DNA from: an uncultured Planctomycetales bacterium | Lineage (GTDB): Bacteria; Omnitrophota; Gorgyraeia; Gygaellales; Profunditerraquicolaceae | Reading direction: 5' to 3' | Length of the DNA: 64,000 nucleotides | Assembly: GCA_964545575.1 (NCBI GenBank) | Contig: CAZJFL010000001.1 | Span: forward strand, 294,178 to 358,177 | Part shown: positions 39,001 through 57,674 of the stretch, in pieces | Layout of the letters: each line of letters opens with the position of its first letter | How positions within the stretch are numbered: position 1 is the stretch's first letter | Program-made: the position numbers and the translations under genes | Notes under the pieces: generated by a model | Told to the model about the DNA's origin: nothing | Databases searched by the model: none | What the model saw: only the letters and a program-made list of their open reading frames with translations

Positions 39001-40859
39001 ACCACGTGCTTCCGGCACCGATTGCGCTATCCACTAATAGCGGCACTACCTTAACCGGCTGGCCGGCAGAGATCGCGCCCCCGACCCCACCGATAAAGGA
39101 ACCGGCAAACTCTCCCAAGCTCCGGGAGAAACTGTTACGGTTCGTCCATTCTTCGCGGTCTTCTTCGCTTAAATCCATCCATGTCGGCCGGCCATTTACG
39201 CTCTTATACTTAGGAAGCGCAGACTTTCTGTTCAAAAAATTTTCATAATCCTTATAATCTATACCCAAGCCGGCTATTTTCCCCAGAGATGAAGATACAA
39301 ACTGTACTTCTTTAATTGGGGCGGCGAGCCCGCGCCAAAAATCAGAGGAATTCCCTTTAGGCACAATCCCTACGAGTGCGCCGTCCTTCTTCCCCCAATA
39401 CCTGGTAAGCCCTGCTGAAGAAATAAAGCCGGAGGTTAAGCCATACGATAAAAAATCCGCGGTAAAGTTAGCTGTCTCAAGGGCAAGTTCAGGATTCTTT
39501 TTATAGAAAGCAGAGTCCTTTATTGACAGGTAAGCTATATATCTGGCTCCTGCTTTAAGTGCGCCCATTCCTAACCCTACCTGTAAACCCCGCGTAAAGG
39601 ACGATTGAGCGTTCCAAACGGCATCTTTAATGTGCATAAATTGCTTTGGCTCTATTTTGGTTGTGACGCCGTAAGAAAAAGCTGTAGTTGCCAGTGTGCT
39701 GATGGCTTGGACGAGCCCCGGATTCATTCCTGTTTTGGATAACCCATAAGTTGCTATCGTGCCTAATTGGCCGGTAAACTGCGCAACCGCTAAATCAGTG
39801 ATTCCTCCGCTGCAAATACCGGGTATAGCAGTTAACACCGTCATCCCTAAGTTGATTGCCGTTGCCCTCAAGTCTGGCTGTTGGAAAAGCGGGCTTAAAT
39901 CCGGGTACTTGCCTCTGTATCTCCTTGCCCCTAAAATAAGTTTGGCTTCACTATCAGCGATGGCGGTTAAGCCGACCGCCTCTTTTTTCTCGCTTAAAAT
40001 ATATCCGGAAAATCCTTCAAGGAACTTCTCGCTGGGCAGGAATTCTTCTTTATGCTCATCAATAAAATAAACCTTATCTCCAGAAATGCGGGCAACTAAG
40101 ACATAGTGATCGCCTTTTAAGTGGGCGATAAAAGGGACTGTCCCCGACAAGTCTATTAGTGTGTTATTCTTAGGGGACTGTCCCTGATTGAAGTCTATTT
40201 TTGCCGGGTAGAGTTTGTGGCCAAAGAATGCTGAAGCTTGAGATAAGGCAAATAATGAGTTTTTAATCACTTCCGGGTTACCTTCAGGCTTGACTACCCC
40301 GTTTAAAATATCCACGGTTAAGGCTAAAACCGCGATATCCTGCTCGGCTACCTGCGCGCCGGCATAAGTTAAATAATCATATAGCGCTTTTGTGCCGCAG
40401 GGCCTGCCTTTTAACCATTCGTAAATCTCATCTATTCGCTGCTTGCTGATGTTTAAGGGCTTTTCTAATTTTAAGGTGAGTTCCGGAGATAACCTGATAG
40501 CATTGACGGACTTACCGGAAATATCTTTAAGGATGTTCCTCACCGCCAGCGGAATGTCCAAACTGCGGGTATCTTTAAGATAGGCCGGGGCAAAAGTATT
40601 GAGTGTACCAACCGCAGGCCTCTGCCAGAGCACGCGCCAGTCATATTCTACTGCTTGAGCTACCTGCTGAGGAATAAAAATAGCCACTACTACAAAGGCT
40701 ACTACCCTGATCCAGGCCTTAAAGTTGGAGTGAAAATGCGGCTTCTCGTTCTTTCCCGTAAAAGAACTTACAGCAGAATCAGAAACCTCTACGGCTTCTC
40801 CGATCCTGCTTCCGCGGGATATTTCTTCTAATTTTTCTGTACGGGTTGCTTTTTCCATT
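1..40859 (-). CDS. Giant multidomain, multi-TM protein. The 3' end is outside the window. There are 13,589 or more codons in one frame from 40768 to 2, plus a 46-codon N-terminal ORF (40859..40722) in the adjacent frame, implying a frameshift or indel near 40720-40745.
   Basis: All plus-strand ORFs in 1-40.8 kb are short low-complexity antisense shadows. No complete minus-strand ORF of 60 aa or more is listed, so the coding frame has no stop before the window edge. I checked frame phase (codon top coordinate mod 3 = 1) at 40195, 35992, 16222, 8659, 2611 and 4, and all agree. ATG 40859 follows the upstream gene stop (40862) but hits TAA at 40719-40721. The long frame opens after a TAA at 40769-40771, and the two frames read together give a sensible N-terminus followed by a TM helix. 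The translated protein has recognisable motifs of several enzyme families (listed as separate features). Confidence 0.8.
1300..2640 (-). other. SecA-like DEAD-type motor (NBD) module of the giant protein
   Basis: Translation KDFAGTKSTVILPGLAYLVVKRQNLKVFAVVCNDHFAYDQGKRAAE...DVIYGQISTFNFDYQKLDLL...RWVIMADEADRTLVAEAFTPHIISQ...ILTLVGNRGVNILL lines up with four SecA blocks. These are SecA [77 protein letters not shown] and TNMAGRGTDI. I verified the DEAD block on the DNA (2180-2260). Confidence 0.65.
5280..5790 (-). other. Phosphodiester-glycosidase (NAGPA/DUF2233)-like module of the giant protein
   Basis: Translation ...AKSLVGVDQRGNLVLVSTDADNLTYGKLFGGFPTTTQMADFMIKEFNVRNAWFVDCGISGYFYIKGK resembles the family C-terminal block (...aIGid.dGrLllvvvDG...G.tl.ElA.lm..lGa.dAlNLDGGGSs). 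It matches at motif level only. Confidence 0.4.
7630..7690. repeat. Dispersed internal repeat, copy 1 (its partner is at 9743-9803)
   Basis: ggagctttgcctaataaagtagcgactaacaaggcatcgccgataatcgctgcccaga nearly matches 9743-9803 (ggagctttacctaataaagtagcgactaacaaggcaccgccgataatcgctgcccaga). Both encode WAAIIG.ALLVATLLGKAP in TM-rich parts of the giant protein, which suggests a duplicated membrane module. Confidence 0.8.
8190..8660 (-). other. Class I SAM-dependent methyltransferase-like module of the giant protein
   Basis: Motif I reads EEPMRILDIGAGKGYALFY (hh[DE]hGxGxG). Downstream lies FHFAMSVRTFEYLIDQLRALEEVHRVLAADGEARINW (post-I/II/III-like). The frame checks at 8659. Confidence 0.55.
9743..9803. 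repeat. Dispersed internal repeat, copy 2 (its partner is at 7630-7690)
   Basis: See the 7630-7690 feature. Confidence 0.8.
15690..16100 (-). other. Site-2-protease / peptidase M50-like membrane module of the giant protein, with an atypical HExxxH spacing
   Basis: Translation ...GIIGASVLGHELAGHGLVARIFGRKTSGVELGVLGG...LVYAAGPLVSLGLMAAGLAL...NLFTTVNLGMAVFNLLPLKPLDGGTIF. Compare RseP/SpoIVFB-type HEFGHfwvARrcG and the NLLPipvLDGG motif. I read the DNA codon by codon: cac gaa tta gcc ggg cat gives HELAGH, one residue longer than the canonical HExxH. Confidence 0.6.
19229..19756. repeat. Tandem duplication of about 264 bp (2 copies, roughly 90% identical) inside the giant ORF, encoding a duplicated coiled-coil segment
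   Basis: gccaaaatcttctgatta...ttcttccaccggcctgattaacgcctgcgcact...gcgggct(g/a)cttccagct...gcaaagcttccttctgct recurs with a period of about 264 bp (copy starts near 19231 and 19495). Both copies are in frame and translate to ...QSEILLAQARKQKEALL..LEAARREKQDILD.E..VLAD..SAQALIRPVEEKI.RIE..LKE.NQKILA.E. Confidence 0.8.
35850..35995 (-). other. Peptidoglycan-binding (PG_binding_1-like) module of the giant protein
   Basis: Translation LTARQIQASLNKAGFYPYLPDGIKGSLTKKAITDFQSANGLKPDGIVGPKTWGAL fits the PG_binding_1 consensus (L...GY.....DG.FG..T..A...FQ...GL..DG.vGp.Tw..L). Confidence 0.65.
40090..40420 (-). other. Peptidase C39-like (bacteriocin-processing / papain-like) domain of the giant protein
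   Basis: Translation reads ...RPCGTKALYDYLTYAG...(about 90 aa)...GDHYVLVARISGDKVYFIDEHKE. This matches the C39 Cys motif (CG.A.L..YYG-like) and the His-box (HYVV..I.gdkvyI.DP-like) in the right order and spacing. A TM helix lies just before it. Confidence 0.5.
40134..40184. repeat. Palindrome pair gggactgtcccc (40134-40145) and ggggactgtccc (40173-40184), in frame inside the giant ORF 5' region
   Basis: The element gggactgtccccgacaRgtct.ttattag.gt.tt.ttaggggactgtccctg is nearly identical at 42755-42806. Here it encodes ...QGQSPKNNTLIDLSGTVPF.... Confidence 0.85.
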
Positions 40860-40861
40860 TT

Positions 40862-41353
40862 TTATCTGTTTAAGTGCCCTATTTTGCCAATCTGTTTAAT
40901 CTCAATAACCGTACTCTTCATCGACTTATTTGCAGAAGTACGTTGTAAAGCGCTATTCGCGCGGTTTGAAGTAACTTTAGAAAACGCCCTTTCTCTATGC
41001 TTGCTCATACCCAGGTTAGTCTTTAAGGGGGCCTTTACTTCTTTTAAAAACGATCTTTGATTTATCTTTTTGATTGTAGGAACGCCGATTTTTTTATTCA
41101 ATTTTGGTATTTTGGCCCCAGCCGGAGGCTTAGCAGGCCTAATAATATTATACGGCCTCTCAAGTGGGTTAAAATCGCCGGGCCTTCTACTTGGCCTTTG
41201 GTGATCGCGCCATTGGTAACCGGCGCCTCCTATGCCTTTGACAATTGTAAATGCCGCCTTACCATTATTATTATTCATTCTAGCTCTTTCTGTCGGCCCC
41301 ATTATTCCAAAAACTCCAATCGCTGCTATCGCTATTATTACAAATATGCCCAT
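40862..41353 (-). CDS. Hypothetical basic protein with an N-terminal TM helix (163 aa). Its stop is 3 nt from the giant-gene ATG.
   Basis: It is an ORF-track ORF with the N-terminus MGIFVIIAIAAIGVFGIMG. It lies in an operon between the 393-aa gene and the giant gene and overlaps the upstream gene by 16 nt. Confidence 0.55.
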   Translation of the reverse strand: MGIFVIIAIAAIGVFGIMGPTERARMNNNNGKAAFTIVKGIGGAGYQWRDHQRPSRRPGDFNPLERPYNIIRPAKPPAGAKIPKLNKKIGVPTIKKINQRSFLKEVKAPLKTNLGMSKHRERAFSKVTSNRANSALQRTSANKSMKSTVIEIKQIGKIGHLNR

Positions 41354-42496: not shown

Positions 42497-42628
42497 TTAA
42501 AAGAAAACCGGATTATCAAATACTCGATTTCGCATCGGTATTCGGTAACCCGGCTGTCTTTAAAAATCCCTTTTAAGACCCGTGGCTTTGTGCCCCCACC
42601 TCACGGTGGGTTTACCCTTTCGTCCCGT
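42497..42628 (-). promoter_or_regulatory. c-di-GMP-I (GEMM)-like riboswitch A in the 5' leader of the giant-gene operon. The aptamer is about 42538-42628. The terminator-like platform is about 42497-42550.
   Basis: The minus-strand transcript reads ACGAAAGGGUAAACC-CACC GUGA GGUG-GGGGCACAAAGCCACGGG-UCUUAAAAGGGAUUUUUAAAGAC-AGCCGGGUUACCGAAUACC. Compare the Vibrio Vc2 GEMM GGGCAAACC / GNRA hairpin / GGGACGCAAAGCC / P2 / GCGGGGUUACCGA. The conserved 3' strand CCGGGUUA can instead pair with UAAUCCGG, which is followed by UUUUCUUUU (a putative terminator). Confidence 0.6.
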
Positions 42629-42754: not shown

Positions 42755-42804
42755 GGGACTGTCCCCGACAGGTCTCTTATTAGCTGTTCTTAGGGGACTG
42801 TCCC
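42755..42804. repeat. Palindrome pair gggactgtcccc (42755-42766) and ggggactgtccc (42793-42804). Degenerate extra copies ggggacagaccc and ggggacaatccc lie at 42862-42894.
   Basis: Direct reading. It sits about 75 bp upstream (on the minus strand) of the operon -35. Confidence 0.85.
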
Positions 42805-42885
42805 TGTTTTAGTCTCTATTTTAGGGTCAGCCCCCTTAGGAAGATAAGTAATGGCTCTGACGGGGACAGACCCTTCATTTACGGG

Positions 42886-42933
42886 GACAATCCCTTACAG
42901 ATTGGACATTTTTAAGCTTGCAGAGTGGACATT
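42886..42933. repeat. Recurrent intergenic module aatccct-tacag-attggacattttt, plus a second agtggacatttaa copy
   Basis: The 15-mer cagattggacatttt is shared with 57571-57586. A similar aatccctccattatggacatttt is at 56206-56229. Confidence 0.7.
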
Positions 42934-42934
42934 T

Positions 42935-43008: not shown

Positions 43009-43311
43009 TCATTTATATGTATCTTCCCCTCTTTTTCTTAGGACAAATACCCAGATTATCTTCTGCGTTTCATCTACATCATATAAAACGCGATAATCGT
43101 CAATACGGAGTCGATATTGGGCAGTATACTGCACTAATTTAAGCGGCGGGGTAAGTTTTTTAAAAATATTCTTACCTTGCGGATAAGGATTTTCTGCGAG
43201 TCCTGCGGTAGCATCCATAATTGCATCTTGAACTTTACGAGGAAGTTTTACCAGCGCCTTATGGAATTTGTCTTCGAGAGAACGCGTTGGGAATAAAAGG
43301 CGGTATTTCAT
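43009..43311 (-). CDS. Type II toxin, RelE/ParE family (100 aa)
   Basis: The C-terminal block YRLRIDDYRVLYDVDETQKIIWVFVLRKRGEDTYK fits RelE/ParE. It overlaps the upstream antitoxin gene by 4 nt. Confidence 0.75.
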   Translation of the reverse strand: MKYRLLFPTRSLEDKFHKALVKLPRKVQDAIMDATAGLAENPYPQGKNIFKKLTPPLKLVQYTAQYRLRIDDYRVLYDVDETQKIIWVFVLRKRGEDTYK

Positions 43312-43601
43312 TTACGTGCCTTACGGGCTCTTGAGAACAGACGTAGTACAGATACGCCTTCTTTTTTCGCTTTGATTGCCTTTCGACCTTCTTCTACAGC
43401 TTTCAATGTCTCTAAATCCGTAGCTTCATCAATCAGATCGACCATCTCAATAGCTTCCGTATAAGGAATAACTACATCAACAGGAACCCCGCGTTCAGTA
43501 ATAATAAGGGGGTTACCGCCTTTTAAGAGTCTGGATAGGCGTGCTTTAAATTGTCTTATGCCTATGTGCGGTGCCTTTAATAGAATTGTCGCGAGAGTCA
43601 T
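43308..43601 (-). CDS. Phd/YefM-type antitoxin (97 aa)
   Basis: ...PLIITERGVPVDVVIPYTEAIEMVDLIDE... resembles Phd/YefM. A strong RBS AAGGAGG precedes the ATG. It pairs with the downstream RelE-like gene. Confidence 0.7.
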   Translation of the reverse strand: MTLATILLKAPHIGIRQFKARLSRLLKGGNPLIITERGVPVDVVIPYTEAIEMVDLIDEATDLETLKAVEEGRKAIKAKKEGVSVLRLFSRARKARK

Positions 43602-43691: not shown

Positions 43692-44576
43692 TTAAAATCC
43701 TTGTCCTTTTAAACCAAAACCGCCCTGCATAAATTGGATAAGGATAGGGCCGCCGACAATAATTGCCACTACCGGCATGATGAAGAAGATAAGGGGAAAG
43801 AGCATCTTAATCGGGGCTTGTAAAGCCAGGCGTTCACCTCTCTGGAACCTTTGACGGCGGGTTTCTTCGCCTAAGGCATTCAACACATCATAAACCGGAG
43901 TGCCCATACGGTCCGCAGAGACTAAGGTATTCACTAGAGAAAAAACCTCCGTAATATTTAAACGCCTGCTCATCGCCTTTAATGCCTCCTGCCGTGACTT
44001 GCCTACTTTAATTTCCTGAGTAACCATACTTAATTCCTTAATTAGGGGGCTGGGCTTTGAACGCTGGAGCACCCAATCTAGGCCTTGCATAAAATCTAGC
44101 CCTCCGCCGACGCAGAGAGTAAGCAAGTCGATCACATCAGGCAATACCTTTATAATAATCCGGTTACGCTTCTGAATACGTATCTTTAGATAAATATCCG
44201 GCAATAAAAATCCGATGCCAAAAATAATCAAACCCCACAAAGGCTCAAACCTTTTCAGCGTCAAATATACCCCTAAAAATAAACCCAGCATTAATAATTC
44301 TTTTATCCCTAAGTAATCTTCGGGCAGCAAATTTATCTCGGCGGATGACAATTTATCCATTACTGCCTGCCGTCTTAGCTTAGATAAAATAATCCGGTTA
44401 AGGGGAAAAAGCGGGCGGGTAAAAAATAAAGGGACCTTTATGAATTCATCCTTGGGGGATAATTTCGGGGCTTGCGGCTTCAGCTCGGGAGACAACTGCA
44501 TAGGCCGGCGCAAGACAAAAAAGAGCGAAATACTTAAGATCCCGCTAAATAGCAATACGTAGATTAAAACCGGCAT
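43692..44576 (-). CDS. tadC: TadC-like (T2SS-F / GspF domain) pilus inner-membrane protein. The likely start is ATG 44576 (MPVLIYVLL...), overlapping the tadB stop as TAATG with a GGAGGTG RBS.
   Basis: T2SSF-type block LPDVIDLLTLCVGGGLDFMQGLDWV...VSADRMGTPVYDVLNALGEE with flanking TM helices. The ORF track extends it to 44639. Confidence 0.8.
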   Translation of the reverse strand: MPVLIYVLLFSGILSISLFFVLRRPMQLSPELKPQAPKLSPKDEFIKVPLFFTRPLFPLNRIILSKLRRQAVMDKLSSAEINLLPEDYLGIKELLMLGLFLGVYLTLKRFEPLWGLIIFGIGFLLPDIYLKIRIQKRNRIIIKVLPDVIDLLTLCVGGGLDFMQGLDWVLQRSKPSPLIKELSMVTQEIKVGKSRQEALKAMSRRLNITEVFSLVNTLVSADRMGTPVYDVLNALGEETRRQRFQRGERLALQAPIKMLFPLIFFIMPVVAIIVGGPILIQFMQGGFGLKGQGF

Positions 44577-45424
44577 TACACCTCCACGCGGCTTAAACGA
44601 TTTAACATTACCGCTCCGATTACCTCCGAAACCACGCACCAGACCAAAAGAATCCTGCCCACTTCTGATTCTAACATCACATCAAAGAATTGCTTATTGG
44701 TGCTGATCACAAAAAAGGCAAAGATAATAGGCAAGACCGACATAATCATCCCCTGCCACCTCGCCTGCGTAGTCAGGGTTTTAATCTGATCATTGATTCT
44801 TTTTCTGATCCGGATATTCTCGCTTAAATGGGTAAAGATATCGGTCAGGTTTCCGCCGGTTTCCCGCGCTACCAGAATAGCGGTGCTCATTAAATTCAGG
44901 TCTTCAGAGCCCATCTTTTTATTCAGGCGCTCAAAAGAAGTCTCCAGGGGAACTCCCATTTTATTCTCTTTGACCATCAGCGCAAACTCCTGGGAGATGG
45001 GCGCAGGCATGTCTTCGGTTAAGACTTCCATTGCCTGGAGCAAGGATAGGCCGGCTTTTAAAGACTGGCTCAGGTTCACCAAGGCATCGCTTAGCTGGGC
45101 GCCAAACTTAGCCCTGCGGACTTTTTCCATCTGCCGGATGACCAGCATCGGCAGGATAAAACCGATCACAGCCCCGGCAAAAATCAAAATTATATTCTGG
45201 AATAAAAGGAAGGAGGCGACTGCGAAGACGATCGGGCTTACGGAAAAGTAGAGGGCGAGCTTCTTCTGCTCTACCCAGACATACATCTCTTCTAATTTCC
45301 CGGCGGCCCGCTTGGCTTCCTCTTTATGCGCGCGGCCATAGCGCGCAAGAAAGAAAGGCGCCAGCACATAAAAAAGCGAGGCCACTGCCCCGAAGCTAAA
45401 GAGAAAAATCAAAAATTTTAGCAC
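44576..45424 (-). CDS. tadB: TadB-like (T2SS-F domain) pilus inner-membrane protein
   Basis: QLSDALVNLSQSLKAGLSLLQAMEVL...LVARETGGNLTDIFTHLSENIRIRKRINDQIKTLTTQARWQGMIMSVLPI is typical of the TadB/GspF family. Confidence 0.8.
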   Translation of the reverse strand: MLKFLIFLFSFGAVASLFYVLAPFFLARYGRAHKEEAKRAAGKLEEMYVWVEQKKLALYFSVSPIVFAVASFLLFQNIILIFAGAVIGFILPMLVIRQMEKVRRAKFGAQLSDALVNLSQSLKAGLSLLQAMEVLTEDMPAPISQEFALMVKENKMGVPLETSFERLNKKMGSEDLNLMSTAILVARETGGNLTDIFTHLSENIRIRKRINDQIKTLTTQARWQGMIMSVLPIIFAFFVISTNKQFFDVMLESEVGRILLVWCVVSEVIGAVMLNRLSRVEV

Positions 45425-45451
45425 TGCCGGATAATTCTCCTAATTTTTCTG

Positions 45452-45631
45452 TTAGGGATGCGTTGTATAGGGATCGAATTGCCTACCGTGGCCAAAGGTA
45501 TCTCCCACTTCCCGCATCTTGCCTGAAATAGCCCGCTTCAGGTATATCGCCATCCCAATTAATGCTACCACAATTATGAGGATTAGGAAAGCGTATTCTA
45601 TTGAAATAAACGCCTTCTTGGCATTTTTCAT
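45452..45631 (-). CDS. flp: Flp-family pilin paralogue (59 aa, not in the ORF track). Its ATG at 45631 overlaps the upstream stop as ATGA.
   Basis: Translation MKNAKKAFISIEYAFLILIIVVALIGMAIYLKRAISGKMREVGDTFGHGRQFDPYTTHP. It shares the xxIEY + hydrophobic helix + YLKR..G motif with the tandem flp array. Confidence 0.65.
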   Translation of the reverse strand: MKNAKKAFISIEYAFLILIIVVALIGMAIYLKRAISGKMREVGDTFGHGRQFDPYTTHP

Positions 45632-46095
45632 TTTATCTCCACCACCTCTAAACCCACCAGTTTTCTCTTCTCGCCTTTAGCCAGGGTAAAGAGCATTCTT
45701 CTTTTGCCCGGGCGGTAGTCTGCGGCGATAACCACCCTCTCTCTTGTTTGGCTAAATATTCTCCAGTCAGCGAGGGCGTTCGGCTTCCCGCCGGTATAGG
45801 CAAACCCTAAGCTTACCCCCCTGATAAAGACCTCTTTATAATTACGCCGCTCTGCCTCATTAGGCGCCTTAGCGAAACCCGCTCCCACGTCAACTCCCAC
45901 GGCAATCAGCTTATTCCAATCGATAAATTCCCCTACCGAAGCCTTCCCTTCAATCATCCCCTTAAAGATTACGTCACGGCAGAACTCCACATCCTGTTTT
46001 TCTTTGTTCGTGAAAAACATAATCCCGGCAGCCAGGATACTGATAATAAAAACGTAGATAAGCAACCTGTAATCCTTATCCATCTTGATCACCAT
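45628..46095 (-). CDS. Hypothetical membrane-anchored protein (155 aa) inside the tad operon
   Basis: It is an ORF-track ORF with an N-terminal TM (LLIYVFIISILAAGIMFF) and no family recognised. It is tightly packed between the TadG-like gene and flp. Confidence 0.5.
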   Translation of the reverse strand: MVIKMDKDYRLLIYVFIISILAAGIMFFTNKEKQDVEFCRDVIFKGMIEGKASVGEFIDWNKLIAVGVDVGAGFAKAPNEAERRNYKEVFIRGVSLGFAYTGGKPNALADWRIFSQTRERVVIAADYRPGKRRMLFTLAKGEKRKLVGLEVVEIK

Positions 46096-48596: not shown

Positions 48597-48999
48597 ATAT
48601 ATTCAGCTTCGGATAATCCTGCTCATTCTGTTCATCGACTATCCCCGGCGTAGAGTCAGGAGGCGTAACATAGCGCCATGCCTTGCAAATGTAAGGGCGG
48701 TTACAAGGATCTGGCGGTTGTATTTCCCTTCCGTTTAGGACGTCTAAACACTTAGTGCACACGAGCTTGGGTGTGGACACCTCTACGCTTCCTGCGGCAA
48801 CAGCTGTAGCTTCATAATCCACTTGTCGCTGAACCATCCGGCTGCTCAGCCAGACAAATATCCTTGCTGTAGCTACCAGCAAAAGCAGCATAAGAAAAAT
48901 ACTAATACTCAGCTCCAAGGTAACCTGCGCCTTTCTCTGGCTCCTGCGGCCGGCTACGGCGGTAGAAAATAATAAACTCTTCTTCGCCCTAACACACAT
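48571..48999 (-). CDS. TadE-like pseudopilin (142 aa)
   Basis: The N-terminus RRSQRKAQVTLELSISIFLMLLLLVATARI is a TadE-like N-terminal segment. Confidence 0.65.
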   Translation of the reverse strand: MCVRAKKSLLFSTAVAGRRSQRKAQVTLELSISIFLMLLLLVATARIFVWLSSRMVQRQVDYEATAVAAGSVEVSTPKLVCTKCLDVLNGREIQPPDPCNRPYICKAWRYVTPPDSTPGIVDEQNEQDYPKLNIFENWPKGK

Positions 49000-49024
49000 C
49001 TGCTTTTTAGTTCTCCTGCGCTAA

Positions 49025-50467
49025 TTACTTCCTCGTCTTATTGGACCAATCCATATCTATGGTCCGGTTACTGTAAAGCCAGTCTATGCTCGACGTAGGC
49101 CTATCTGGACGCAGCAGATACCCTCCGTCGCTCACTTGATTAAGGTAGTGGATCTGCCTCACTGTGGCCTGGTTCAGATAAACGCTGTCCCTGGTTTGAA
49201 TCTGCTGCAGGAGCTCTCTTTTGCTTAAAGTCTCGGTTTTATTAGTTGTGGTAAGCAAATCCGGGCTTAAGCCCATTGCTTTAGCTTTATATGTGTGGCG
49301 GAAGATTTCCTCTATCACCGGAAAATCAAAGGTGTCATAGCGGACTGTGCCTTCATGGTACCTCACGTAGTCTCCGCAATACCAGGCGCCGCCATAATGA
49401 TCATTATAGTATTGCTCCCGTTGCTCGTTAGGGCGGTTAGTGCTCTCAATACATATTTCATCGCAACGCGTCAAATTCTCCGCCTCCGTTTGTCCTAACA
49501 TTCTAGCCTTGTTGCACTCATCGAAACAGAACTGCCTATCCACGATCATCCGGCACTGCGCGGTCAGGGAATCCTTATCTATAATCTCTGCGGCTGTAGT
49601 ATCGAGTATATATATGGGAAAGGTGTAGTCAAGACACCGCCAACCCCAAGGACCACGGAGACAGCTTCCCGGAGGATAATTTCTGGCCTCCTCAAAAGAT
49701 GTTAAAGTGCAATTGTCGCCTCCAATACTTATACCTACCAACTCCTTCCAGCATTCCGCACAGACACCATTCTGCCTTGGGCCTTTACACCAATAATAGT
49801 TATTAGCGGAAGGATTAGCCCCTAAGTCCATCATAGCATATCCGGTATACGGCTGAAAAAAATTACATTCTGCATTGCCTTGTGGAGCTGGCTCCCACCC
49901 GATATTCCTGCAATCACTACATTTGCGGTAATTTCTGTTCGCCAGGTCCGGCTCCAGATCGTCCCACCAGACATTGCTTGCTCCGTATATCTCCTCGTAT
50001 TTTTCGTACTGGCGCTCGTTGACATCGCGCTCCGTCCTGAAGGCCTGAGTCTTAAAGGATTGGGTAGAATAGCCGGCCGGGCTGCCCGGCTGATATTTAC
50101 CGTCGGAGACGTGGATATCCATCCGGTTTAATTCCAGCGCGTTTTCCGGATTCTCGTATAACCGGTGCGAACGTATCGGGCTGGTTGCTGAACTGGCAAC
50201 CGGGAAAATCTGCCCGATTCCTGTAGGGCTGGAAGGGTCAGGTACGTGTATATCTTTAATCATTATACTGGAAACGCTGGAGGGCTTATTGTCTTGTGCC
50301 GAATATTCCGCATCATAAAGCGCCTGCCTGAAAACCCGCCAGCTGACTTGATGCTGAAAATTATACCTTAAGCCATAATTTATCAAAACACCCAGAAGCA
50401 TGATTAAAAGCGAGCCGAAAATTGCCAGCTCCAATAATGACTGGGCTTTATTATTTACCTTATTCAT
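49025..50467 (-). CDS. TadE/TadF-like pseudopilin with a large Cys-rich C-terminal domain of about 17 Cys (480 aa)
   Basis: The N-terminus MNKVNNKAQSLLELAIFGSLLIMLLGVLINYG is a prepilin-like leader plus hydrophobic helix. The C-terminal 380 aa are rich in C, W, Y, N and G. Confidence 0.6.
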   Translation of the reverse strand: MNKVNNKAQSLLELAIFGSLLIMLLGVLINYGLRYNFQHQVSWRVFRQALYDAEYSAQDNKPSSVSSIMIKDIHVPDPSSPTGIGQIFPVASSATSPIRSHRLYENPENALELNRMDIHVSDGKYQPGSPAGYSTQSFKTQAFRTERDVNERQYEKYEEIYGASNVWWDDLEPDLANRNYRKCSDCRNIGWEPAPQGNAECNFFQPYTGYAMMDLGANPSANNYYWCKGPRQNGVCAECWKELVGISIGGDNCTLTSFEEARNYPPGSCLRGPWGWRCLDYTFPIYILDTTAAEIIDKDSLTAQCRMIVDRQFCFDECNKARMLGQTEAENLTRCDEICIESTNRPNEQREQYYNDHYGGAWYCGDYVRYHEGTVRYDTFDFPVIEEIFRHTYKAKAMGLSPDLLTTTNKTETLSKRELLQQIQTRDSVYLNQATVRQIHYLNQVSDGGYLLRPDRPTSSIDWLYSNRTIDMDWSNKTRK

Positions 50468-50855
50468 CGAAAAGTGATGACCCCAATTTTCTCACGTTTT
50501 CATTGCCGCTGGTATTGGTCCATCCTTTATTAAGTATGCTGTTTGTTTCGGTAGCAAATACATCTGTATCGTCAAAATCTCCATCGTCATTAAAGTCAAT
50601 TTGCGTGCCGTGCGCTTCATTATATGCCTTCTCGCTCCAAGTTATTACCGTATCTGTCGTGTTGCTATAGGAATAAACTACAGATGAGCCGGTAGTCTTT
50701 TTCGGGGCATACTGCTCACCCAATTCATCGGCCAGCTGCCTGAACCTGCCCTGCATGCCGCGCTTAAGATAGACTGCCATTGCTATTAAAGCAGCTACGA
50801 TGCAGGTAATTAACACCGCCACTTCTAAGGTTGTTTGAGCCTTATTCTTTTTCAC
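50460..50855 (-). CDS. flp: Flp-family pilin paralogue 10 (131 aa)
   Basis: MKKNKAQTTLEVAVLITCIVAALIAMAVYLKRGMQGRFR... Confidence 0.65.
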   Translation of the reverse strand: MKKNKAQTTLEVAVLITCIVAALIAMAVYLKRGMQGRFRQLADELGEQYAPKKTTGSSVVYSYSNTTDTVITWSEKAYNEAHGTQIDFNDDGDFDDTDVFATETNSILNKGWTNTSGNENVRKLGSSLFDE

Positions 50856-51198
50856 TCCACATCCCCTGAGAAAGAATTCCCTCTTTTTTAAACCGCTCGT
50901 CTCTTTCAGTCGTTACCCTTCCTTCTAAGTCTTTATTTATCTTTTTATAAGGAACCTGGTGTTCATCCACCGTAGTACTTATATTTGAATAACCTTTCAT
51001 TTTCCAGAGAAGGTCGTAATCAACTTCTACTAAGCCCTTTTTCTGGTCGCCGATAGCGTCGGCGGCCACCTGCACTACTCCCTGCACGCCGCGCTTCATA
51101 TAGGTCTGCATCCCTATGAGCGCGGCAGTAACAACCGCAATAAGCAAAACATACTCGGACAGACTCTGAGCTCTGCTATTTCTTCTTAGTTTTACCAT
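50842..51198 (-). CDS. flp: Flp-family pilin paralogue 9 (118 aa)
   Basis: ...SRAQSLSEYVLLIAVVTAALIGMQTYMKRGVQGVVQ... Confidence 0.7.
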   Translation of the reverse strand: MVKLRRNSRAQSLSEYVLLIAVVTAALIGMQTYMKRGVQGVVQVAADAIGDQKKGLVEVDYDLLWKMKGYSNISTTVDEHQVPYKKINKDLEGRVTTERDERFKKEGILSQGMWSEKE

Positions 51199-51246
51199 TT
51201 TTGCGCTATTTTGTCTATACCTATATCGCTTAGTTGCCTTGTGACC

Positions 51247-51582
51247 CTACGGTTTAATCCCGCTCAGCGGCTTCCAACTTGCAACATCTTCTGCGCTCTT
51301 TTCTTTTGTTTCACCGCCCGACTGTAAGGTAGACGTAGTTACTCGATTCTGGATTGTCTGCACGCTGGTTGTATCTTTCGTTGTCTCAAAGTCTACCTGA
51401 TTAGAGGTTGCGTTAGCCTCAAATTGCGCTCCGATATCGTCAGTGGACTGGCGCAGTTTTCCCTGCACGCCGCGTTTCATATAAATTTGTATGGCGAATA
51501 ATGCCGCTACCACCACAGCGACAATTATGGCATATTCCAAGGTGCTTTGGCCTTTTTTGTGCATACACATCGCTATACTCAC
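51247..51582 (-). CDS. flp: Flp-family pilin paralogue 8 (111 aa; the likely start is the internal MHKKGQ...)
   Basis: ...MHKKGQSTLEYAIIVAVVVAALFAIQIYMKRGVQGKLRQ... Confidence 0.7.
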   Translation of the reverse strand: MSIAMCMHKKGQSTLEYAIIVAVVVAALFAIQIYMKRGVQGKLRQSTDDIGAQFEANATSNQVDFETTKDTTSVQTIQNRVTTSTLQSGGETKEKSAEDVASWKPLSGIKP

Positions 51583-51600
51583 CTCCTTATTGGCTTATGG

Positions 51601-51915
51601 CTACTGTTGTACCGGTACCTTTACTGTTTGGGCCCCGCTACGCTCTGTCCTCCTATCAAGAGACTGACGGCTGACCGCGCCACCTAATTTGGTCTCATCC
51701 GTCTCGGTGTAGCCTTTTTCAGTATTGGTATAACTAGATTCGAGATAATACGGTTCATACTGGCCCGTGACATTAGCGGCTTTATCTACGGCGTATCTTA
51801 TACCGCCCTGCATACTTCTCTTTAAATACACCTGCATGGCCATAGCCGCCCCAACAACCAAAGCAATCACAATAGCATACTCGGCAGTGCTTTGGGCCCT
51901 TTTATGTCTTAACAT
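51601..51915 (-). CDS. flp: Flp-family pilin paralogue 7 (104 aa)
   Basis: MLRHKRAQSTAEYAIVIALVVGAAMAMQVYLKRSMQGGIR... Confidence 0.7.
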   Translation of the reverse strand: MLRHKRAQSTAEYAIVIALVVGAAMAMQVYLKRSMQGGIRYAVDKAANVTGQYEPYYLESSYTNTEKGYTETDETKLGGAVSRQSLDRRTERSGAQTVKVPVQQ

Positions 51916-51936
51916 TATTGTTCACCTCCTTAGTTA

Positions 51937-52323
51937 TTATTCGTATAGCTTTTCGTCCTTTAAATCCGTATTCACCTTTTCGGCGTCGTTTCCTAAGGCG
52001 CTTCTTTTTACGTCAGCCGGAGTTACTACGTCATATCTAGATGTGCCCACTCCTAGCTCCTGTGTGCCAAATCGTTCCGTTGTAACCTGATCGCCTGTCT
52101 GTGTAGTGGTATATTTGGAAGTCATACGGCCGGCGGAATACTGTTCGCCGATTTTATCTGTGGATTCACGCAGTTTTCCCTGCACGCCGCGGCGCATATA
52201 TATCTGTATGGTCAATAAAGTTCCCACTACTACTGCAATAATCACCGCATATTCCAGAGTGCTTTGTCCCAGCTTATTTTTAGGCATCACTTTATCACCT
52301 CCCTTAATCCCTGCTAAAAACAC
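51937..52323 (-). CDS. flp: Flp-family pilin paralogue 6 (128 aa; the likely start is the internal MPKNKLGQ...)
   Basis: ...MPKNKLGQSTLEYAVIIAVVVGTLLTIQIYMRRGVQGKLRE... Confidence 0.7.
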   Translation of the reverse strand: MFLAGIKGGDKVMPKNKLGQSTLEYAVIIAVVVGTLLTIQIYMRRGVQGKLRESTDKIGEQYSAGRMTSKYTTTQTGDQVTTERFGTQELGVGTSRYDVVTPADVKRSALGNDAEKVNTDLKDEKLYE

Positions 52324-52356
52324 TATCTTAACCGCTCACAAACCTTTGCTTAAGAT

Positions 52357-52767
52357 TTAAGGCGGATTCTGATTTCCCGGCTCACCAAAGCGATATTCCT
52401 GATAATCATCTTTTGCCTGCCTAGTCGTCTGATCAGTAGTACGTGCTACTTTACCTCCCTTGTCCATCTTTGAAGTATCCTTCGAACCGGCTACGGTTGT
52501 CGAAGTTGACACAGCGCTCAGCCCCTCAGGTTCGTACTGATTACTTAGCTCCACGCCCTGCTTAGCGCCAATATCATTCCAATAGTCCTGATGATCTTCA
52601 AGTGCTTTCACAGACTGATCACTTGCATCCTTATATCTACCCTGTATGCCTCTTTTAACATAAGTCTGCATCCCGACTACTGCTGCTATTACTAAGCCGA
52701 TGAGAATCGCGTATTCAGCGGTGCTCTGGGCCTTTTTATTCCTGAATAACCTTAGCATTTTTTTCAC
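52357..52767 (-). CDS. flp: Flp-family pilin paralogue 5 (136 aa)
   Basis: ...NKKAQSTAEYAILIGLVIAAVVGMQTYVKRGIQGRYK... Confidence 0.7.
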   Translation of the reverse strand: MKKMLRLFRNKKAQSTAEYAILIGLVIAAVVGMQTYVKRGIQGRYKDASDQSVKALEDHQDYWNDIGAKQGVELSNQYEPEGLSAVSTSTTVAGSKDTSKMDKGGKVARTTDQTTRQAKDDYQEYRFGEPGNQNPP

Positions 52768-52790
52768 CTCCTTGGCTTTTGGTCGATATT

Positions 52791-52961
52791 TTAGAACTTC
52801 TTCGCTACATTCTGAATCGCAGTATCCGCATCAGTAAGGGTTTTATTTACGGCCGGCTTAATATACTCTTTAGCCGCGAAGAGAATAACCCCGATGATAG
52901 CGGTAATTACCAACACATATTCCAAGATGCTCTGGCCTCTTCCGTATCTTACTCTTGCCAT
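52791..52961 (-). CDS. flp: Flp-family pilin paralogue 4 (56 aa, below the ORF-track cut-off)
   Basis: I derived MARVRYGRGQSILEYVLVITAIIGVILFAAKEYIKPAVNKTLTDADTAIQNVAKKF from the reverse complement. An RBS AAGGAG lies 7 nt upstream of the ATG at 52961. Confidence 0.6.
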   Translation of the reverse strand: MARVRYGRGQSILEYVLVITAIIGVILFAAKEYIKPAVNKTLTDADTAIQNVAKKF

Positions 52962-52987
52962 ATCTTCTCCTTTCCAATCATTCTTCT

Positions 52988-53179
52988 TTATTTTGTCATA
53001 TTCAATATCTCCCCCGAGCTGTCCCCAATTTTTGTCGCTGATTTATTCATTAACTGCCCTACACCGGTGCTACTGGGATCTTGTTTCATAGTGAACACAA
53101 AAGCGGCAACTACACCAACGACTAGCGTCAGAATAATGATGTACTCCAATGTATTCTGCCCTTTCTTCTTTCTTAACAT
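52988..53179 (-). CDS. flp: Flp-family pilin paralogue 3 (63 aa)
   Basis: MLRKKKGQNTLEYIIILTLVVGVVAAFVF.... An RBS GGAGGTGA lies upstream. Confidence 0.7.
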   Translation of the reverse strand: MLRKKKGQNTLEYIIILTLVVGVVAAFVFTMKQDPSSTGVGQLMNKSATKIGDSSGEILNMTK

Positions 53180-53203
53180 GTACTCACCTCCTTATTTTTT
53201 ATA

Positions 53204-53356
53204 CTATGGCCTGACTACTTCTGCGTTAACCTGATCTTCTATAACTTTAAGGTTTGCGTTAAGGCTGCGCTGCACATAGGTGCTCATTGCCATTAGCGCT
53301 GCTACCACTACCGCAATAATCACTGAATATTCCAATACGCTTTGGCCTTTTTTCAT
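53204..53356 (-). CDS. flp: Flp-family pilin paralogue 2 (51 aa, below the ORF-track cut-off)
   Basis: I derived MKKGQSVLEYSVIIAVVVAALMAMSTYVQRSLNANLKVIEDQVNAEVVRP from the reverse complement of 53204-53356. Confidence 0.55.
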   Translation of the reverse strand: MKKGQSVLEYSVIIAVVVAALMAMSTYVQRSLNANLKVIEDQVNAEVVRP

Positions 53357-53359
53357 CTT

Positions 53360-53575
53360 TTACCCCGGATTAATTATGCGAGAGGCGACCCTCCCAAAGA
53401 ATCCCACGGTTAGTCTTGTTCCTTGCAAAGTTCTTTTTACATTTACCAAAAAATTTAATCCCGGGCCTACCGACGCAATTGTTAGGGCTGTAATCACCGC
53501 GAAAAGAACAAAATATTCTATAGCCGCCTGTCCTTTTTTGCCTTTGCGGATTTTTAAAGACTTTATAAAACTCAT
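53360..53575 (-). CDS. flp: Flp-family pilin paralogue 1 (71 aa), the first gene of the tad operon
   Basis: MSFIKSLKIRKGKKGQAAIEYFVLFAVITALTIASVG... shows the Flp G/xxxxEY processing-site motif. Confidence 0.7.
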   Translation of the reverse strand: MSFIKSLKIRKGKKGQAAIEYFVLFAVITALTIASVGPGLNFLVNVKRTLQGTRLTVGFFGRVASRIINPG

Positions 53576-53833: not shown

Positions 53834-53883
53834 GGGACAGTCCCCTTAGGATTCAATAGCTTAGCTCTGGCGGGGACAGTCCC
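53834..53883. repeat. Palindrome pair gggacagtcccc (53834-53845) and ggggacagtccc (53872-53883), 35 bp upstream of the flp promoter -35
   Basis: Direct reading. The second copy abuts the stop codon of the 773-aa gene. Confidence 0.85.
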
Positions 53884-56204
53884 TACGCTAAGAACCAGAG
53901 CCGCTTGCCCCCGGTGAAAATAATCTCCTTTTCATTCAGCCTGCGGCAGGCGTATTCCAGCGCCTTTAAATACGGATATCCCGCAGGGGGTTGAAAGGTC
54001 ACCAAAAGGCTATCCTCTTGCGCCTCCATCCGGCAGGTTAAGCCATAAAACTGCTCTTTTGCCGTCGGGAAATCCTTATCCTCATAGCCGATAGGCAGGA
54101 GGTGCCAGCGGGCATAGAGATCCAGGGCTTTCAGGTAATAACTGAATATCGCGCTGATATCAAAATCCGCTCCCTTGGGCAATTCCAGGTTCTCCGTCGA
54201 GAAAAAGCGCTGGGAGGTGGCGGTGTAGGTGAACAATTCGACTTTGCGGCTATAATCCTGAAAGGCCTCTTCCAAGTTTGGCCAGCGGTTAAGATAAGTA
54301 GAAGCCAGCTCTTCCAGATTTAATTTTTCCGCGGGGAAATTGCTCAGGATCAAGAGCCGCGCCTTCTCGGCAGGACCGGCCTTTAAGGCACAGCCTCTTA
54401 ATGTAACACTTTTATTTGCATCAGGTTGTATCAAGTCTAATTCTATATTCGCCAGATAAAAGTCCTTTTTTAAAGGCGCGAAATGAAAGGGCTTAAACTC
54501 GCCCAACGTCTTGACCTGACGGTATTCGGCAAACTGCCAGGGCCAGAGGCCAAAGATAAAATGGCGCTTTTTCATCGGGTTTACCCGTATAATTTCTATC
54601 TCTTCAAACCTGTTGCTGTAAAGGCCTAAGCTCATAATCCGCTTTTCATCCCCCTCTAAACCTAAGATAAAATCAAAAAACTCTTTGGTCGGCAAATCAT
54701 AACCCGGAGCCATAAAAAGCACGAAAGGCGCGTCCTCCTGAAAATATCTTTTTACGTAAGTCTTTATATTATAAATAGTTGTGGAAAAATTATAGGGGAT
54801 ATGCACCGTGGACCAGGCTGTATGCAGCTGGCCGTCTAAATAGACTGCTGTGCCGTCGGATAAGTTTACTTTGATCCCACGCACTTCCTGCAAGACACTG
54901 GCAATTGTGCGCAGTATGTCCATTGGCAAGGCTTTAATTGCCTGTAATTCATTCAGATAACCTGACAGCTCTTCAGGGCTGAACCTATAATTTAACAGCG
55001 GCCATAAGCCGTAATCCGGCTTGCTCTGGGCAACGACTGATACTTCAAAGAGGCTATTGTAGATGAAAAACTCAGTTTTGGCTAAAAACTCTTTTTCTTC
55101 GTTTTTCAAGCGGCTGTTGATTACATCAGCAATAAAGCGGCTTCCGCCTAAAAGATAATCCGCGGATTTCAGCAAAATCGCCCCTAAACCCGTAAATGTG
55201 CCTTCAGTTTGGACAATTTTAGCGGCTTTAAGATTAGCTTCCTCTACAGCCCTGGCCTTGGCTTCGGCTTCAGCTGCAGCTTTTCTTTCTGTTTCTACCT
55301 GAGCCTTTAATGCGGCTTCGAACTTTGCCTTTTCTTCTGCTTCCCTGCGGGCTATTTCTTCGGCTAAGCGCTTTTCGCGGGCCTCGACTTCTGCGCGCGC
55401 GCGCTCATCCGCTTCATGCTTGGCCTTGACTTCGGCTTCTGCTTCTTGGCGCGCTTTCTCCTCCGCTTCTATGCGCGCTTTTTCTTCGGCTTCTGCCTTA
55501 GCTTTTAATTCCGCTTCTTCTCTGGCCCTAGCTTCCGCTTCCTCTTTGGCTTTTCTTTCCGCTTTAAGCTTTGCTTTTTCTTCGGCTTCTTTGCGCGCTT
55601 TTTCTTCGGCTTCTGCCTTAGCTTTAGCCTCTGCTTCCTGACGCGCTTTTTCTTCTGCCTCTCGACGAGCCTTCTCTTGCGCCTCAGCTTCGGCTTTGGC
55701 GCGTGCTTCTGCTTCTAGCCGCGCCTGTTCTTCTGCTTTAATTCTGGCTTCTTCCTCGGCCCTGGCTTTTGCCTCGGCTTCGGCCTTTGCCTTTACCTCA
55801 GCTTCAGCTTTCAGCTTCGCTTCTTCTGCTGCCTCGGCTTCGGCTTTAAGCTTGGCTTCCTCTGCTACCCTAACTTCGGCAGAAGGCGGGGGCGCCGGCA
55901 TTTCTATCGGCTTAGTTACTTCTGGCGGAAATTCCAAAACAGGGACAGTCCCCTTCGGGGACAGTCCCTTTTCAATCACACCTTTGAGCTTAAGGGCATA
56001 CTTTCTCTTGGTGCGCCTTCTACCCACCGGCATGCTTAAGCTGTTCTCTTTAAACAAAGCGTTAATGCTGGACTTAGAGACTTTAGCCTGAAACTTAGTT
56101 TCTATCAAGGCGGCCATACTGCGGCAGCTGAGCTTAGGATCGGCTTTTTTGCTCTCCAGAATAAAAGTGACTATTTCCGGTTTTAATTTATAAATTACGC
56201 CCAC
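53883..56204 (-). CDS. 773-aa protein with an N-terminal HTH-like segment, an E/A/K-rich coiled-coil low-complexity region of about 230 aa, and a C-terminal globular domain of about 430 aa. Its GTG start has a strong GGAGGG RBS.
   Basis: It is an ORF-track ORF. The N-terminus reads KPEIVTFILESKKADPKLSCRSMAALIETKFQAKVSKSSINALFKEN (helix-turn-helix-like). The middle reads AEEAKLKAEAEV.AKAEAEAKARAEEEAR.... The C-terminus contains ...STYLNRWPNLEEAFQDYSRKV. It has no TM segment. Confidence 0.7.
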   Translation of the reverse strand: MGVIYKLKPEIVTFILESKKADPKLSCRSMAALIETKFQAKVSKSSINALFKENSLSMPVGRRRTKRKYALKLKGVIEKGLSPKGTVPVLEFPPEVTKPIEMPAPPPSAEVRVAEEAKLKAEAEAAEEAKLKAEAEVKAKAEAEAKARAEEEARIKAEEQARLEAEARAKAEAEAQEKARREAEEKARQEAEAKAKAEAEEKARKEAEEKAKLKAERKAKEEAEARAREEAELKAKAEAEEKARIEAEEKARQEAEAEVKAKHEADERARAEVEAREKRLAEEIARREAEEKAKFEAALKAQVETERKAAAEAEAKARAVEEANLKAAKIVQTEGTFTGLGAILLKSADYLLGGSRFIADVINSRLKNEEKEFLAKTEFFIYNSLFEVSVVAQSKPDYGLWPLLNYRFSPEELSGYLNELQAIKALPMDILRTIASVLQEVRGIKVNLSDGTAVYLDGQLHTAWSTVHIPYNFSTTIYNIKTYVKRYFQEDAPFVLFMAPGYDLPTKEFFDFILGLEGDEKRIMSLGLYSNRFEEIEIIRVNPMKKRHFIFGLWPWQFAEYRQVKTLGEFKPFHFAPLKKDFYLANIELDLIQPDANKSVTLRGCALKAGPAEKARLLILSNFPAEKLNLEELASTYLNRWPNLEEAFQDYSRKVELFTYTATSQRFFSTENLELPKGADFDISAIFSYYLKALDLYARWHLLPIGYEDKDFPTAKEQFYGLTCRMEAQEDSLLVTFQPPAGYPYLKALEYACRRLNEKEIIFTGGKRLWFLA
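55230..55900. repeat. Low-complexity GC-rich repeat tract (gcttcTgcttc / ggcttcggc units) encoding the E/A/K coiled coil
   Basis: The plus-strand ORFs 55420..55641 and 55696..56091 (ASASS.AF...) are antisense shadows of this tract. Confidence 0.8.
55942..55968. repeat. Palindrome pair gggacagtcccc / ggggacagtccc separated by 3 nt, in frame inside the 773-aa gene (it encodes KGLSPKGTVPV)
   Basis: Direct reading. Confidence 0.85.
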
Positions 56205-56205
56205 A

Positions 56206-56403: not shown

Positions 56404-56419
56404 TATGTAAAATGGAACT

Positions 56420-57559: not shown

Positions 57560-57562
57560 AAG

Positions 57563-57586
57563 AATCCCTGTCAGATTGGACATTTT
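57563..57586. repeat. Module aatccctgtcagattggacatttt
   Basis: It shares cagattggacatttt with 42899-42914. Confidence 0.7.
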
Positions 57587-57593
57587 CTAATAC

Positions 57594-57674
57594 GGGGACA
57601 GTCCCCGCAGGAGGCGGGGCACCAAACCATCCGATAGGTTTGGGTGCCTACTCGTTGCCTAAGGGGACAGTCCC
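57594..57674. repeat. Palindrome pair ggggacagtcccc (57594-57606) and ggggacagtccc (57663-57674) flanking a hairpin ggcaccaaacc/ggtttgggtgcc. It lies 35 bp upstream of the riboswitch-B promoter -35.
   Basis: Direct reading. Confidence 0.85.

Follow-up and report, generated by a model that had tools for sequence, protein, structure and literature searches.

A probable REP-like hairpin repeat in an Omnitrophota genome, located between genes and in frame inside two of them

The closest described systems to the element analysed here are bacterial REP sequences (extragenic palindromes of repetitive nature), their hairpin-forming doublets (REPINs) and the REP-associated tyrosine transposases (RAYTs) (PMC3116915, PMC5581495, PMC6006769). 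The element is a pair of short palindromic units found repeatedly in a stretch of 64,000 nucleotides from an uncultured bacterium of the phylum Omnitrophota (assembly GCA_964545575.1, contig CAZJFL010000001.1, positions 294,178 to 358,177); this whole stretch is referred to as the window. The pairs probably represent a palindromic repeat of the REP/REPIN type, miniature and non-autonomous, with copies between genes and in frame inside two genes. Like REPIN/REP-RAYT systems, they are short GC-rich palindromes, probably present in many copies and mostly between genes (in the window, three of the five pairs are intergenic), which form inverted doublets that fold into one imperfect hairpin and leave no target duplication. 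In addition, IS200-like Y1/HUH RAYT genes flanked by units were found in three loci of other genomes (L141, L043 and L048) and in a clade that includes Maledivibacter halophilus. The differences are several. The unit is 11-13 nt long, whereas REPs have 20-40 nt, and the GTAG tag is mostly missing. The 11-nt core is the same over more than 15 phyla and viral contigs, while classical REPs are lineage-specific. Coding insertions are frequent, and no RAYT was seen in the Omnitrophota DNA searched.

Repeats inside coding sequence have been described before. GTAG- and CGTC-tagged REPs were reported in coding regions, at differing sites in homologous genes, and were argued to sit in flexible linkers (Di Nocera et al. 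2013, PMC3733652); RAYT genes with REPs or terminal inverted repeats at their flanks (REPtrons and TIRtrons) are described in the same work. The units described here carry neither tag consistently, and both the host phylum and the sequence family lie outside that survey. The Rickettsia palindromic elements (RPEs; Ogata et al. 2000, as cited in PMC3733652), termed "selfish DNA in protein-coding genes", share with the present repeat an in-frame position in functional genes, where they add a peptide segment at surface-exposed tolerant sites, and an additional presence in non-coding DNA. RPEs are about 100-150 bp long and restricted to Rickettsia. They differ in that the inserts here have 27-51 nt (9-17 residues), the host is a free-living or predatory omnitrophote, and the core is common to many phyla. 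Size and host place the repeat outside RPE-1 to RPE-8, and the likeness is one of function, drawn without sequence alignment. Bacterial MITEs, miniature transposable elements with inverted repeats, can also extend or interrupt open reading frames (ORFs), for example in Coxiella (PMC5896051; reviewed in PMC10969869). They too are small, non-autonomous, bounded by terminal inverted repeats and translatable as part of a host protein, but they are DDE-derived, 70-300 bp long and accompanied by target duplications. The present pairs have no duplication, and no parent insertion sequence with these ends was found. The repeat is probably a new REP/REPIN-like hairpin family whose in-frame copies are tolerated in the manner of RPEs and some REPs (PMC3733652). 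Palindromic elements that invade coding sequence in frame, classically known from Rickettsia, are thereby extended to an uncultured phylum and to elements of very small size.

Ten exact GGGAC[A/T]GTCCC units (GGGACAGTCCC or its T-centred complement) are present in the window, always paired, which gives five pairs. The chance expectation for exact units is 0.02, and none of 100 shuffled sequences attained ten. This count bears out the initial annotation of this DNA, which had listed three intergenic pairs and two in-frame pairs, one in a giant ORF and one in a 773-aa gene. Most of its coordinates stand as well, except that two second copies had been placed one nucleotide too early (at 40173 and 55957 instead of 40174 and 55958). 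On the plus strand the centre base is T in the units at 40134, 40174, 42755 and 42794, and A in those at 53834, 53873, 55942, 55958, 57595 and 57664. Together with three degenerate units at 42824, 42863 and 42884, which are decayed copies that lengthen the array at 42.8 kb, all units are located within 18 kb.

Each pair is a 13-nt inverted repeat, AGGGACWGTCCCC ... GGGGACWGTCCCT. An extra C follows the first unit and an extra G precedes the second in all five pairs; T follows the second unit in all five, and A precedes the first in four (G in the fifth). The spacers measure 3, 26, 26, 27 and 58 nt. Both units of a pair have the same centre base on one strand in every window pair, and the same rule was seen in pairs recovered independently via protein homologues. 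As single strands, all five doublets fold into one stem of 12-13 bp, with free energies of -10.5 to -25.7 kcal/mol and z-scores of -2.4 to -4.8. Because the two units share their centre base, the stem contains a single central A·A or T·T mismatch.

The doublets at 40134-40184 (51 nt) and 42755-42804 (50 nt) had been noted as nearly the same composite, spacer included. This holds: 44 of 51 positions are identical (86%), the spacers match at 20 of 27 positions, and the two copies are direct repeats 2.6 kb apart. The likeness continues for about 20 nt past the second unit, where the tail at 40185-40205 matches 42805-42826, so the repeated module is about 75 nt long and exceeds the two units. A search for the flanking target duplications suggested in the initial annotation found no direct repeats of 3 nt or more at any of the five pairs, nor at the insertions in MiaB genes described below.

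The first host gene is the giant ORF, whose minus-strand frame is open from 40861 past the start of the window. Units are found only in its first 730 nt, and none in the remaining 40 kb. The 40134 pair lies within the Peptidase_C39 domain, where the minus-strand translation reads ..NQGQSPKNNTLIDLSGTVPFIAH.. / ..QGQSPKNNTLIDLSGTVPFIAH.. and the insert falls in the loop that separates the region of the catalytic Cys from the PFIAH..H strand. In an AlphaFold2 (AF2) model of the C39 region, residues 222-242 are a coil between two strands, with the model confidence (pLDDT) dropping from about 95 to 69-74; the insert is thus modelled as part of a loop of the domain.

Nearly all named homologues of the giant protein's N-terminus are labelled as Omnitrophota C39 peptidases, and genes of this type are known from the literature on giant genes. 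In an alignment of 36 homologues, G[LQ]SP..GTVP segments were found at three variable sites of the C39 domain (after YLTY, before PFIAH and after SGYAL), and those after YLTY and after SGYAL are extra residues relative to the homologues which do not have them. In total, 18 segments were detected in 15 of 59 C39 homologues. For three homologues, whose proteins are 47-59% identical to the giant protein of the window, DNA was available; in each the segments are encoded by GGGAC[AT]GTCCC units, exact or one substitution off. Seven units lie within 350 nt in the C39 homologue L124. Across Omnitrophota, the N-terminal C39 region is an insertion hot spot. Since homologues lack the segment or carry it at other sites, and palindrome DNA encodes it, the segment is an insertion at the DNA level.

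In the 773-aa protein the 55942 pair is translated as ..EKGLSPKGTVPVLEF.. (KGLSPKGTVPV), and the GLSPKGTVP segment is located in a variable linker following the conserved N-terminal domain. None of the 48 homologues of this protein has the segment, and 47 of them are without any element-type peptide. The initial annotation had proposed to look for homologues lacking the insert, and for both host genes they exist.

The 773-aa family is conserved in Omnitrophota. Its members have an invariant N-terminus of 60 aa resembling a helix-turn-helix (HTH), a KRK patch and an EAKAK coil which is very variable in length. The C-terminal domain of about 430 aa has no Pfam match and contains YLNRWPNLEEAF, reminiscent of DDE-transposase signatures; one homologue is named "TolA" by NCBI. 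As the only transposase-like candidate, the 773-aa ORF was considered as the parent transposase of the repeat and rejected: Pfam gives it no transposase match, its family is conserved in Omnitrophota, and its homologues are without units. It is not bracketed by units.

The encoded peptide follows from the reading frame. In the frame that survives, the first unit is read as G-GGA-CWG-TCC-CC, which gives G, Q or L, S and P, and the second as GGG-ACW-GTC-CCT, which gives G, T, V and P. As the unit is nearly palindromic, the peptide is the same in both orientations except for Q versus L, and GTVP therefore arises as a by-product of the DNA sequence; it is no protein motif under selection. The remaining two sense frames of the 51-nt sub-family meet TAA or TAG in CCCCTAAG, and in T-centred compact forms the other frames give Cys. 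The unit-to-unit span of coding copies is 27, 36 or 51 nt, versus 50, 50 and 80 nt for the intergenic copies of the window; the coding copy at 40134 is one nucleotide longer than its intergenic twin. A span divisible by three was considered as a universal rule and rejected as such: it is true for the C39 and 773-aa sub-family, and in other sub-families, such as that with the 31-nt spans in MiaB, the element reaches past the units. The in-frame pairs had been described as always yielding GTVP. This is correct for all 18 segments in the C39 homologues, but elsewhere these units give GDSP, GQSP or GDCP. As other genes and lineages use other frames, the regularity is local to the C39 gene family.

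That GLSP and GTVP form a conserved functional peptide motif, with the palindrome a coincidence of codon choice, is extremely improbable. The Pro of GTVP does align with a Pro of the C39 domain which is nearly invariant (xPFIAH). However, only this Pro is conserved, the rest being absent or different in most C39 homologues and spread over three sites. The motif is missing from all 48 homologues of the 773-aa protein, distant homologues have palindrome DNA at the segments, and identical units occur in non-coding DNA. An ancient GTVP motif written elsewhere in non-palindromic codons, which the initial annotation had named as the outcome that would speak for a protein motif, was not what the homologues revealed; the result favours insertion. 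The recurrent GLSP..GTVP of Omnitrophota "Archaeovorin"-type giant proteins and of other genes is, on this evidence, probably a footprint of selfish DNA and not a functional motif, which matters for the annotation and modelling of these poorly understood proteins.

In-frame units are not limited to the two host genes. They were detected in MiaB of two Omnitrophota and one planctomycete, in GT4 glycosyltransferase genes of a Saccharibacterium and in a linker of a phage terminase. One MiaB site is filled in both phyla; at another, the copy of one genome is fresh and that of the other is decayed. In the Omnitrophota locus L113, identically flanked copies are located between the argF, argG and argH cistrons. 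The argF stop codon there comes from the element's GTAG, as does the stop of the 773-aa ORF in the window. A side observation concerns the Omnitrophota MiaB of L061 (4037-5377), which contains three separate in-frame doublets; two of these are near-identical 45-nt copies (AAAAATGGGGACAGTCCCCAAAAGGCGGGGACAGTCCCCATTTTT), within the UPF0004 and Radical_SAM domains.

A search through one genome per species, for two units separated by 5-35 nt, returned paired units at at least 120 genome loci in more than 15 phyla, a figure which could partly be the background of any GC-rich palindrome pair. Among the matches listed were Planctomycetota, Omnitrophota, Actinomycetota, Verrucomicrobiota, Bacillota, Bacteroidota, Acidobacteriota, Nitrospirota, Patescibacteria, Proteobacteria and others. 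In viral contigs, pairs were found at 54 loci, and three control palindromes of equal composition gave 22, 7 and 4, so the core is over-represented there, with an excess that is real yet moderate. Flanks and inner hairpins split into lineage-specific sub-families around a constant core. Many matches lie at contig ends, and such repeats break metagenome assemblies. An all-against-all BLAST of ORFs within 1.5 kb of the pairs at 120 loci detected no common neighbouring gene, only assorted housekeeping genes. No Rfam family overlapped the elements in the window and in 12 unit-rich loci. The exact palindrome string was found in none of the microbial papers searched and is also absent from PMC3733652.

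The link to RAYT enzymes comes from a profile built from RAYT-like proteins and run against all fetched DNA. RAYT-like genes matching NCBIfam REP_Tyr_transpos are located directly beside exact units in L141, L043 and L048. In L141, an AT-rich viral contig, unit pairs are present on both sides of the gene; in L048, a Planctomycetia contig, units lie upstream of it. The protein of a metagenomic locus (L231) falls in a clade whose annotation is "REP element-mobilizing transposase RayT". The cultured M. halophilus is part of this clade, and the named relatives of the L231 protein are Firmicutes. L231 and four of five further loci of this clade (L298-L301) have inverted CCAG-GGGAC[G/C]GTCC-TTGACA units on both sides of the gene; the M. 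halophilus locus (L297) has weaker matches to them. In genomes other than that of the window, RAYT-like proteins thus occur with GGGACNGTCCC units at their flanks, and this is the REPtron arrangement which defines REP-RAYT systems (PMC3733652, PMC5581495).

Two of these loci have further peculiarities. L141 (also recovered as L213) is IMGVR_UViG_3300008418_000052, with about 32% GC and 15 exact units in the first 4 kb of the locus, besides further units with one or two mismatches, an unusually high density for an AT-rich genome. Its units form pairs with 15-nt spacing; these surround small genes, among them a RelE/ParE-like pair and the RAYT-like gene. In the Kiritimatiellae locus L043, the RAYT-like gene (546-1088) has a six-unit array upstream and an in-frame unit (..PSGDSPSP..) near its 3' end.

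If the pairs are a REP-type repeat, one element would be two 13-nt inverted units around a spacer of 3-58 nt, whose single-stranded DNA would fold into one hairpin. A RAYT-type HUH/Y1 single-strand transposase, a member of the IS200 superfamily, would copy it in trans, without target-site duplication. Most copies would land between genes. A coding copy would survive only where it keeps the frame, introduces no stop codon and falls in a tolerant surface loop or linker, and it would then be translated into a short segment rich in Gly, Pro, Ser and Thr. Such coding copies are presumably neutral passengers. As no RAYT was found in the window or in the Omnitrophota DNA searched, it is by analogy with the unit-flanked genes of other genomes that a RAYT-type enzyme is suggested to mobilise the copies in this one.

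Several results weigh against this interpretation. A RAYT-like (PF01797 / NF047646) gene is absent from the window and from about 100 kb of Omnitrophota DNA searched. GGGAC-type flank units were found at only 2 of 80 metagenomic RAYT relatives, so the link to RAYTs is limited to sub-clades. The usual GTAG tag of REPs is scarce: in the window it is present at one of five pairs (53883-53886), the remaining pairs having TTAG, AAAG, AAAG and CAGG, and among 1,104 flanks GTA or GTAG reaches about 2% and CGTC 0.1%, although a sub-family in L113, L012 and L084 does have GTAG. A unit of 11-13 nt is far shorter than classical REPs. All 18 C39-family segments are in one frame, which independent random insertions would not predict; this may reflect selection, or a few founding insertions at the three sites. 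The three intergenic pairs are all located just upstream of strong promoters, which is not predicted by a purely selfish model. Finally, presence/absence polymorphism between close strains was not found. The assemblies L001, L002 and L302 carry the same pairs, a comparison which is uninformative on insertion polymorphism, the DNA of L302 being 100% identical.

On the other side stand the homologues without the insert or with it at other sites, the palindrome-encoded peptide, the occurrence in unrelated genes and the RAYT flanks. Of the readings offered in the initial annotation, a mobile palindromic element tolerated in frame is the one these observations uphold. The coordinates of the pairs, their host genes and the neighbouring features are collected in Table 1.

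Table 1. Palindrome pairs, host genes and neighbouring features in the window, in window coordinates
Feature	Coordinates	Strand	Remarks
Host gene 1, giant ORF, >13,620 codons	2..40858	-	leaves the window; N-terminal Peptidase_C39; Omnitrophota 'Archaeovorin'-type giant gene
51-nt doublet	40134..40184 (units 40134-40144, 40174-40184)		inside giant ORF; minus strand encodes GQSPKNNTLIDLSGTVP
Tail beyond second unit, TGATTGAAGTCTATTTTTG	40185..40205		homologous to 42805-42826
c-di-GMP-I riboswitch aptamer	42540-42625	-	Rfam, 65.9 bits
Intergenic 50-nt doublet	42755..42804		twin of 40134 composite, 1 nt shorter
Three degenerate units	42824..42894		GGGTCAGCCCC at 42824, GGGACAGACCC at 42863, GGGACAATCCC at 42884
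Second short repeat, AATCCCT[TA/GT]CAGATTGGACATTTT	42889-42913, 42917-42934, 57562-57586		beside palindrome clusters
ParE-toxin / Phd-antitoxin module	43009-43601	-	own promoter (43669) and terminator (42994-42960)
Tad/Flp-type pilus operon	43692-53575	-	between the giant genes
Intergenic 50-nt doublet	53834..53883		distal unit overlaps TAG stop of 773-aa ORF: GTAG, then GGACTGTCCCC, minus strand
Host gene 2, 773-aa ORF	53883..56204	-	HTH-like N-terminus, long EAKAK coiled coil, conserved C-terminal domain without Pfam match
Compact 27-nt doublet (12-3-12)	55942..55968		inside 773-aa ORF; encodes GLSPKGTVP
Intergenic 80-nt doublet	57595..57674		encloses inner hairpin GGCACCAAACC..GGTTTGGGTGCC
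c-di-GMP-I riboswitch aptamer	57777-57869	+	Rfam, 70 bits
Second giant ORF, >1,949 codons	58153-63999	+	two-partner secretion (TPS) domain; leaves the window

The promoters near the intergenic pairs bear on a regulatory role. The pairs at 53834, 42755 and 57595 are located 35, 76 and 36 nt upstream of -35 boxes, respectively, of promoters which each match the consensus at 11 of 12 positions and are the three best of the region. The promoter next to the 53834 pair is that of the Flp-pilin operon. The one next to the 42755 pair drives a cyclic di-GMP (c-di-GMP) riboswitch, two small ORFs and the giant ORF, and the one next to the 57595 pair serves a second c-di-GMP riboswitch and the TPS-domain giant ORF. 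In an operator or upstream activating site, as also proposed in the initial annotation, a dimeric transcription factor would control the Flp-pilus operon and both c-di-GMP-gated giant-gene operons, and the coding copies would be internal regulatory sites. The distances to these promoters are the best argument for it, the motif is a perfect dyad, and two of the promoters precede c-di-GMP-I riboswitches. An operator is nevertheless unlikely. Positional support at 35-76 nt upstream of promoters is weak, and the equally good promoters at 43669 and 56386 (also 11 of 12) have no pair. An operator leaves unexplained the units in loop-coding parts of MiaB, glycosyltransferase and phage terminase genes, and those between arg cistrons that have no promoters. 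No neighbour or regulator gene is shared over the 120 loci, units are found in more than 15 phyla, and the upstream regions of the two riboswitches have little in common beyond the units. For helix-turn-helix dimers, a centre-to-centre distance of only 6 bp between half-sites is unusual, which also counts against an operator.

Homology of the two riboswitch upstream regions was considered separately and rejected, as they are mostly unrelated apart from the units. It was also observed that at two promoters (53834 vs 53799 and 57674 vs 57710) the proximal unit is centred near -75, the third doublet being about 40 nt farther; the similar placement may be a coincidence or an exapted upstream site.

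The direct repeats at 40134 and 42755 bear on another reading from the initial annotation, in which the pairs are sites of site-specific recombination that mediate inversion or deletion, for example a swap or excision of the 5' end of the giant gene between these two positions. The two composites are 86% identical and 2.6 kb apart, pairs on either side of about 48 kb are opposite in centre-base orientation, and the compact 12-3-12 layout is loosely like the core sites of recombinases. Even so, this is very unlikely. There is no recombinase or invertase gene in the window and nothing that supports the reading specifically; all three assemblies with the 773-aa gene region have the same pairs in the same arrangement. 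The units are scattered over unrelated genes and phyla, and spacers of 3-58 nt are unfit for a fixed crossover core.

The fold of the doublets could alternatively have been selected by the host as an RNA or DNA structure (terminator, mRNA-stabilising hairpin or RNase III site), which is compatible with a mobile origin. In other genomes (for example L106, L061 and L074) many units have A-run and T-run flanks like those of bidirectional terminators, and the flanks are A-rich in composition at -3 to -6. The intergenic pairs of the window follow gene ends: one overlaps a stop codon, and the doublet at 57595 begins 36 nt past the stop of an AAA_14/DUF4143 gene. As a general explanation this is improbable, because no doublet of the window has a T-run fit for a good terminator, while the neighbouring toxin-antitoxin operon has a canonical one. 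Rfam gave no match, a terminator inside an essential or giant gene would be harmful, and the insertion polymorphism in coding loops is left unaccounted for. A terminator or RNA-structure role is plausible for some sub-families elsewhere which have A-run and T-run flanks.

A wider extension of the REP-type interpretation is possible rather than probable, namely that GGGACWGTCCC is the conserved hairpin core of an undescribed REP superfamily of many phyla (at least 15, and phage contigs), served by horizontally moving RAYT-like HUH enzymes and routinely colonising coding loops and linkers. That the same 11-nt core is found at RAYT-type genes of distant phyla points to a single hairpin which a widely transferred single-strand transposase recognises. 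Such a superfamily would target essential genes (MiaB), phage genes for structure and packaging, and the N-termini of giant genes in Omnitrophota. It would be a general source of short Gly/Pro-rich linker insertions, an RPE-like phenomenon at the scale of the bacterial domain.

The surroundings of the repeat have features of their own. The two giant ORFs are divergently transcribed around an 18-kb island. Each of the two c-di-GMP-I riboswitches is located after a TTGACA-17-TATACT promoter and before a giant-gene operon; riboswitches were not mentioned in the Omnitrophota giant-gene preprints examined. One of the riboswitch-led operons starts with the TPS-domain ORF, and the other comprises ORFs of 393 aa and 163 aa followed by the ORF of >13,620 aa. 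The AATCCCT-type repeat is present upstream of both riboswitch promoters, and its initial bases resemble half a decayed unit. The ParE/Phd module lies directly upstream of the 42.8-kb palindrome cluster. The pilus operon contains two T2SSF/TadB-C-like genes and others like TadE/G, besides small Flp-like pilin paralogues, at least seven in number, which have a QSTxEYA motif.

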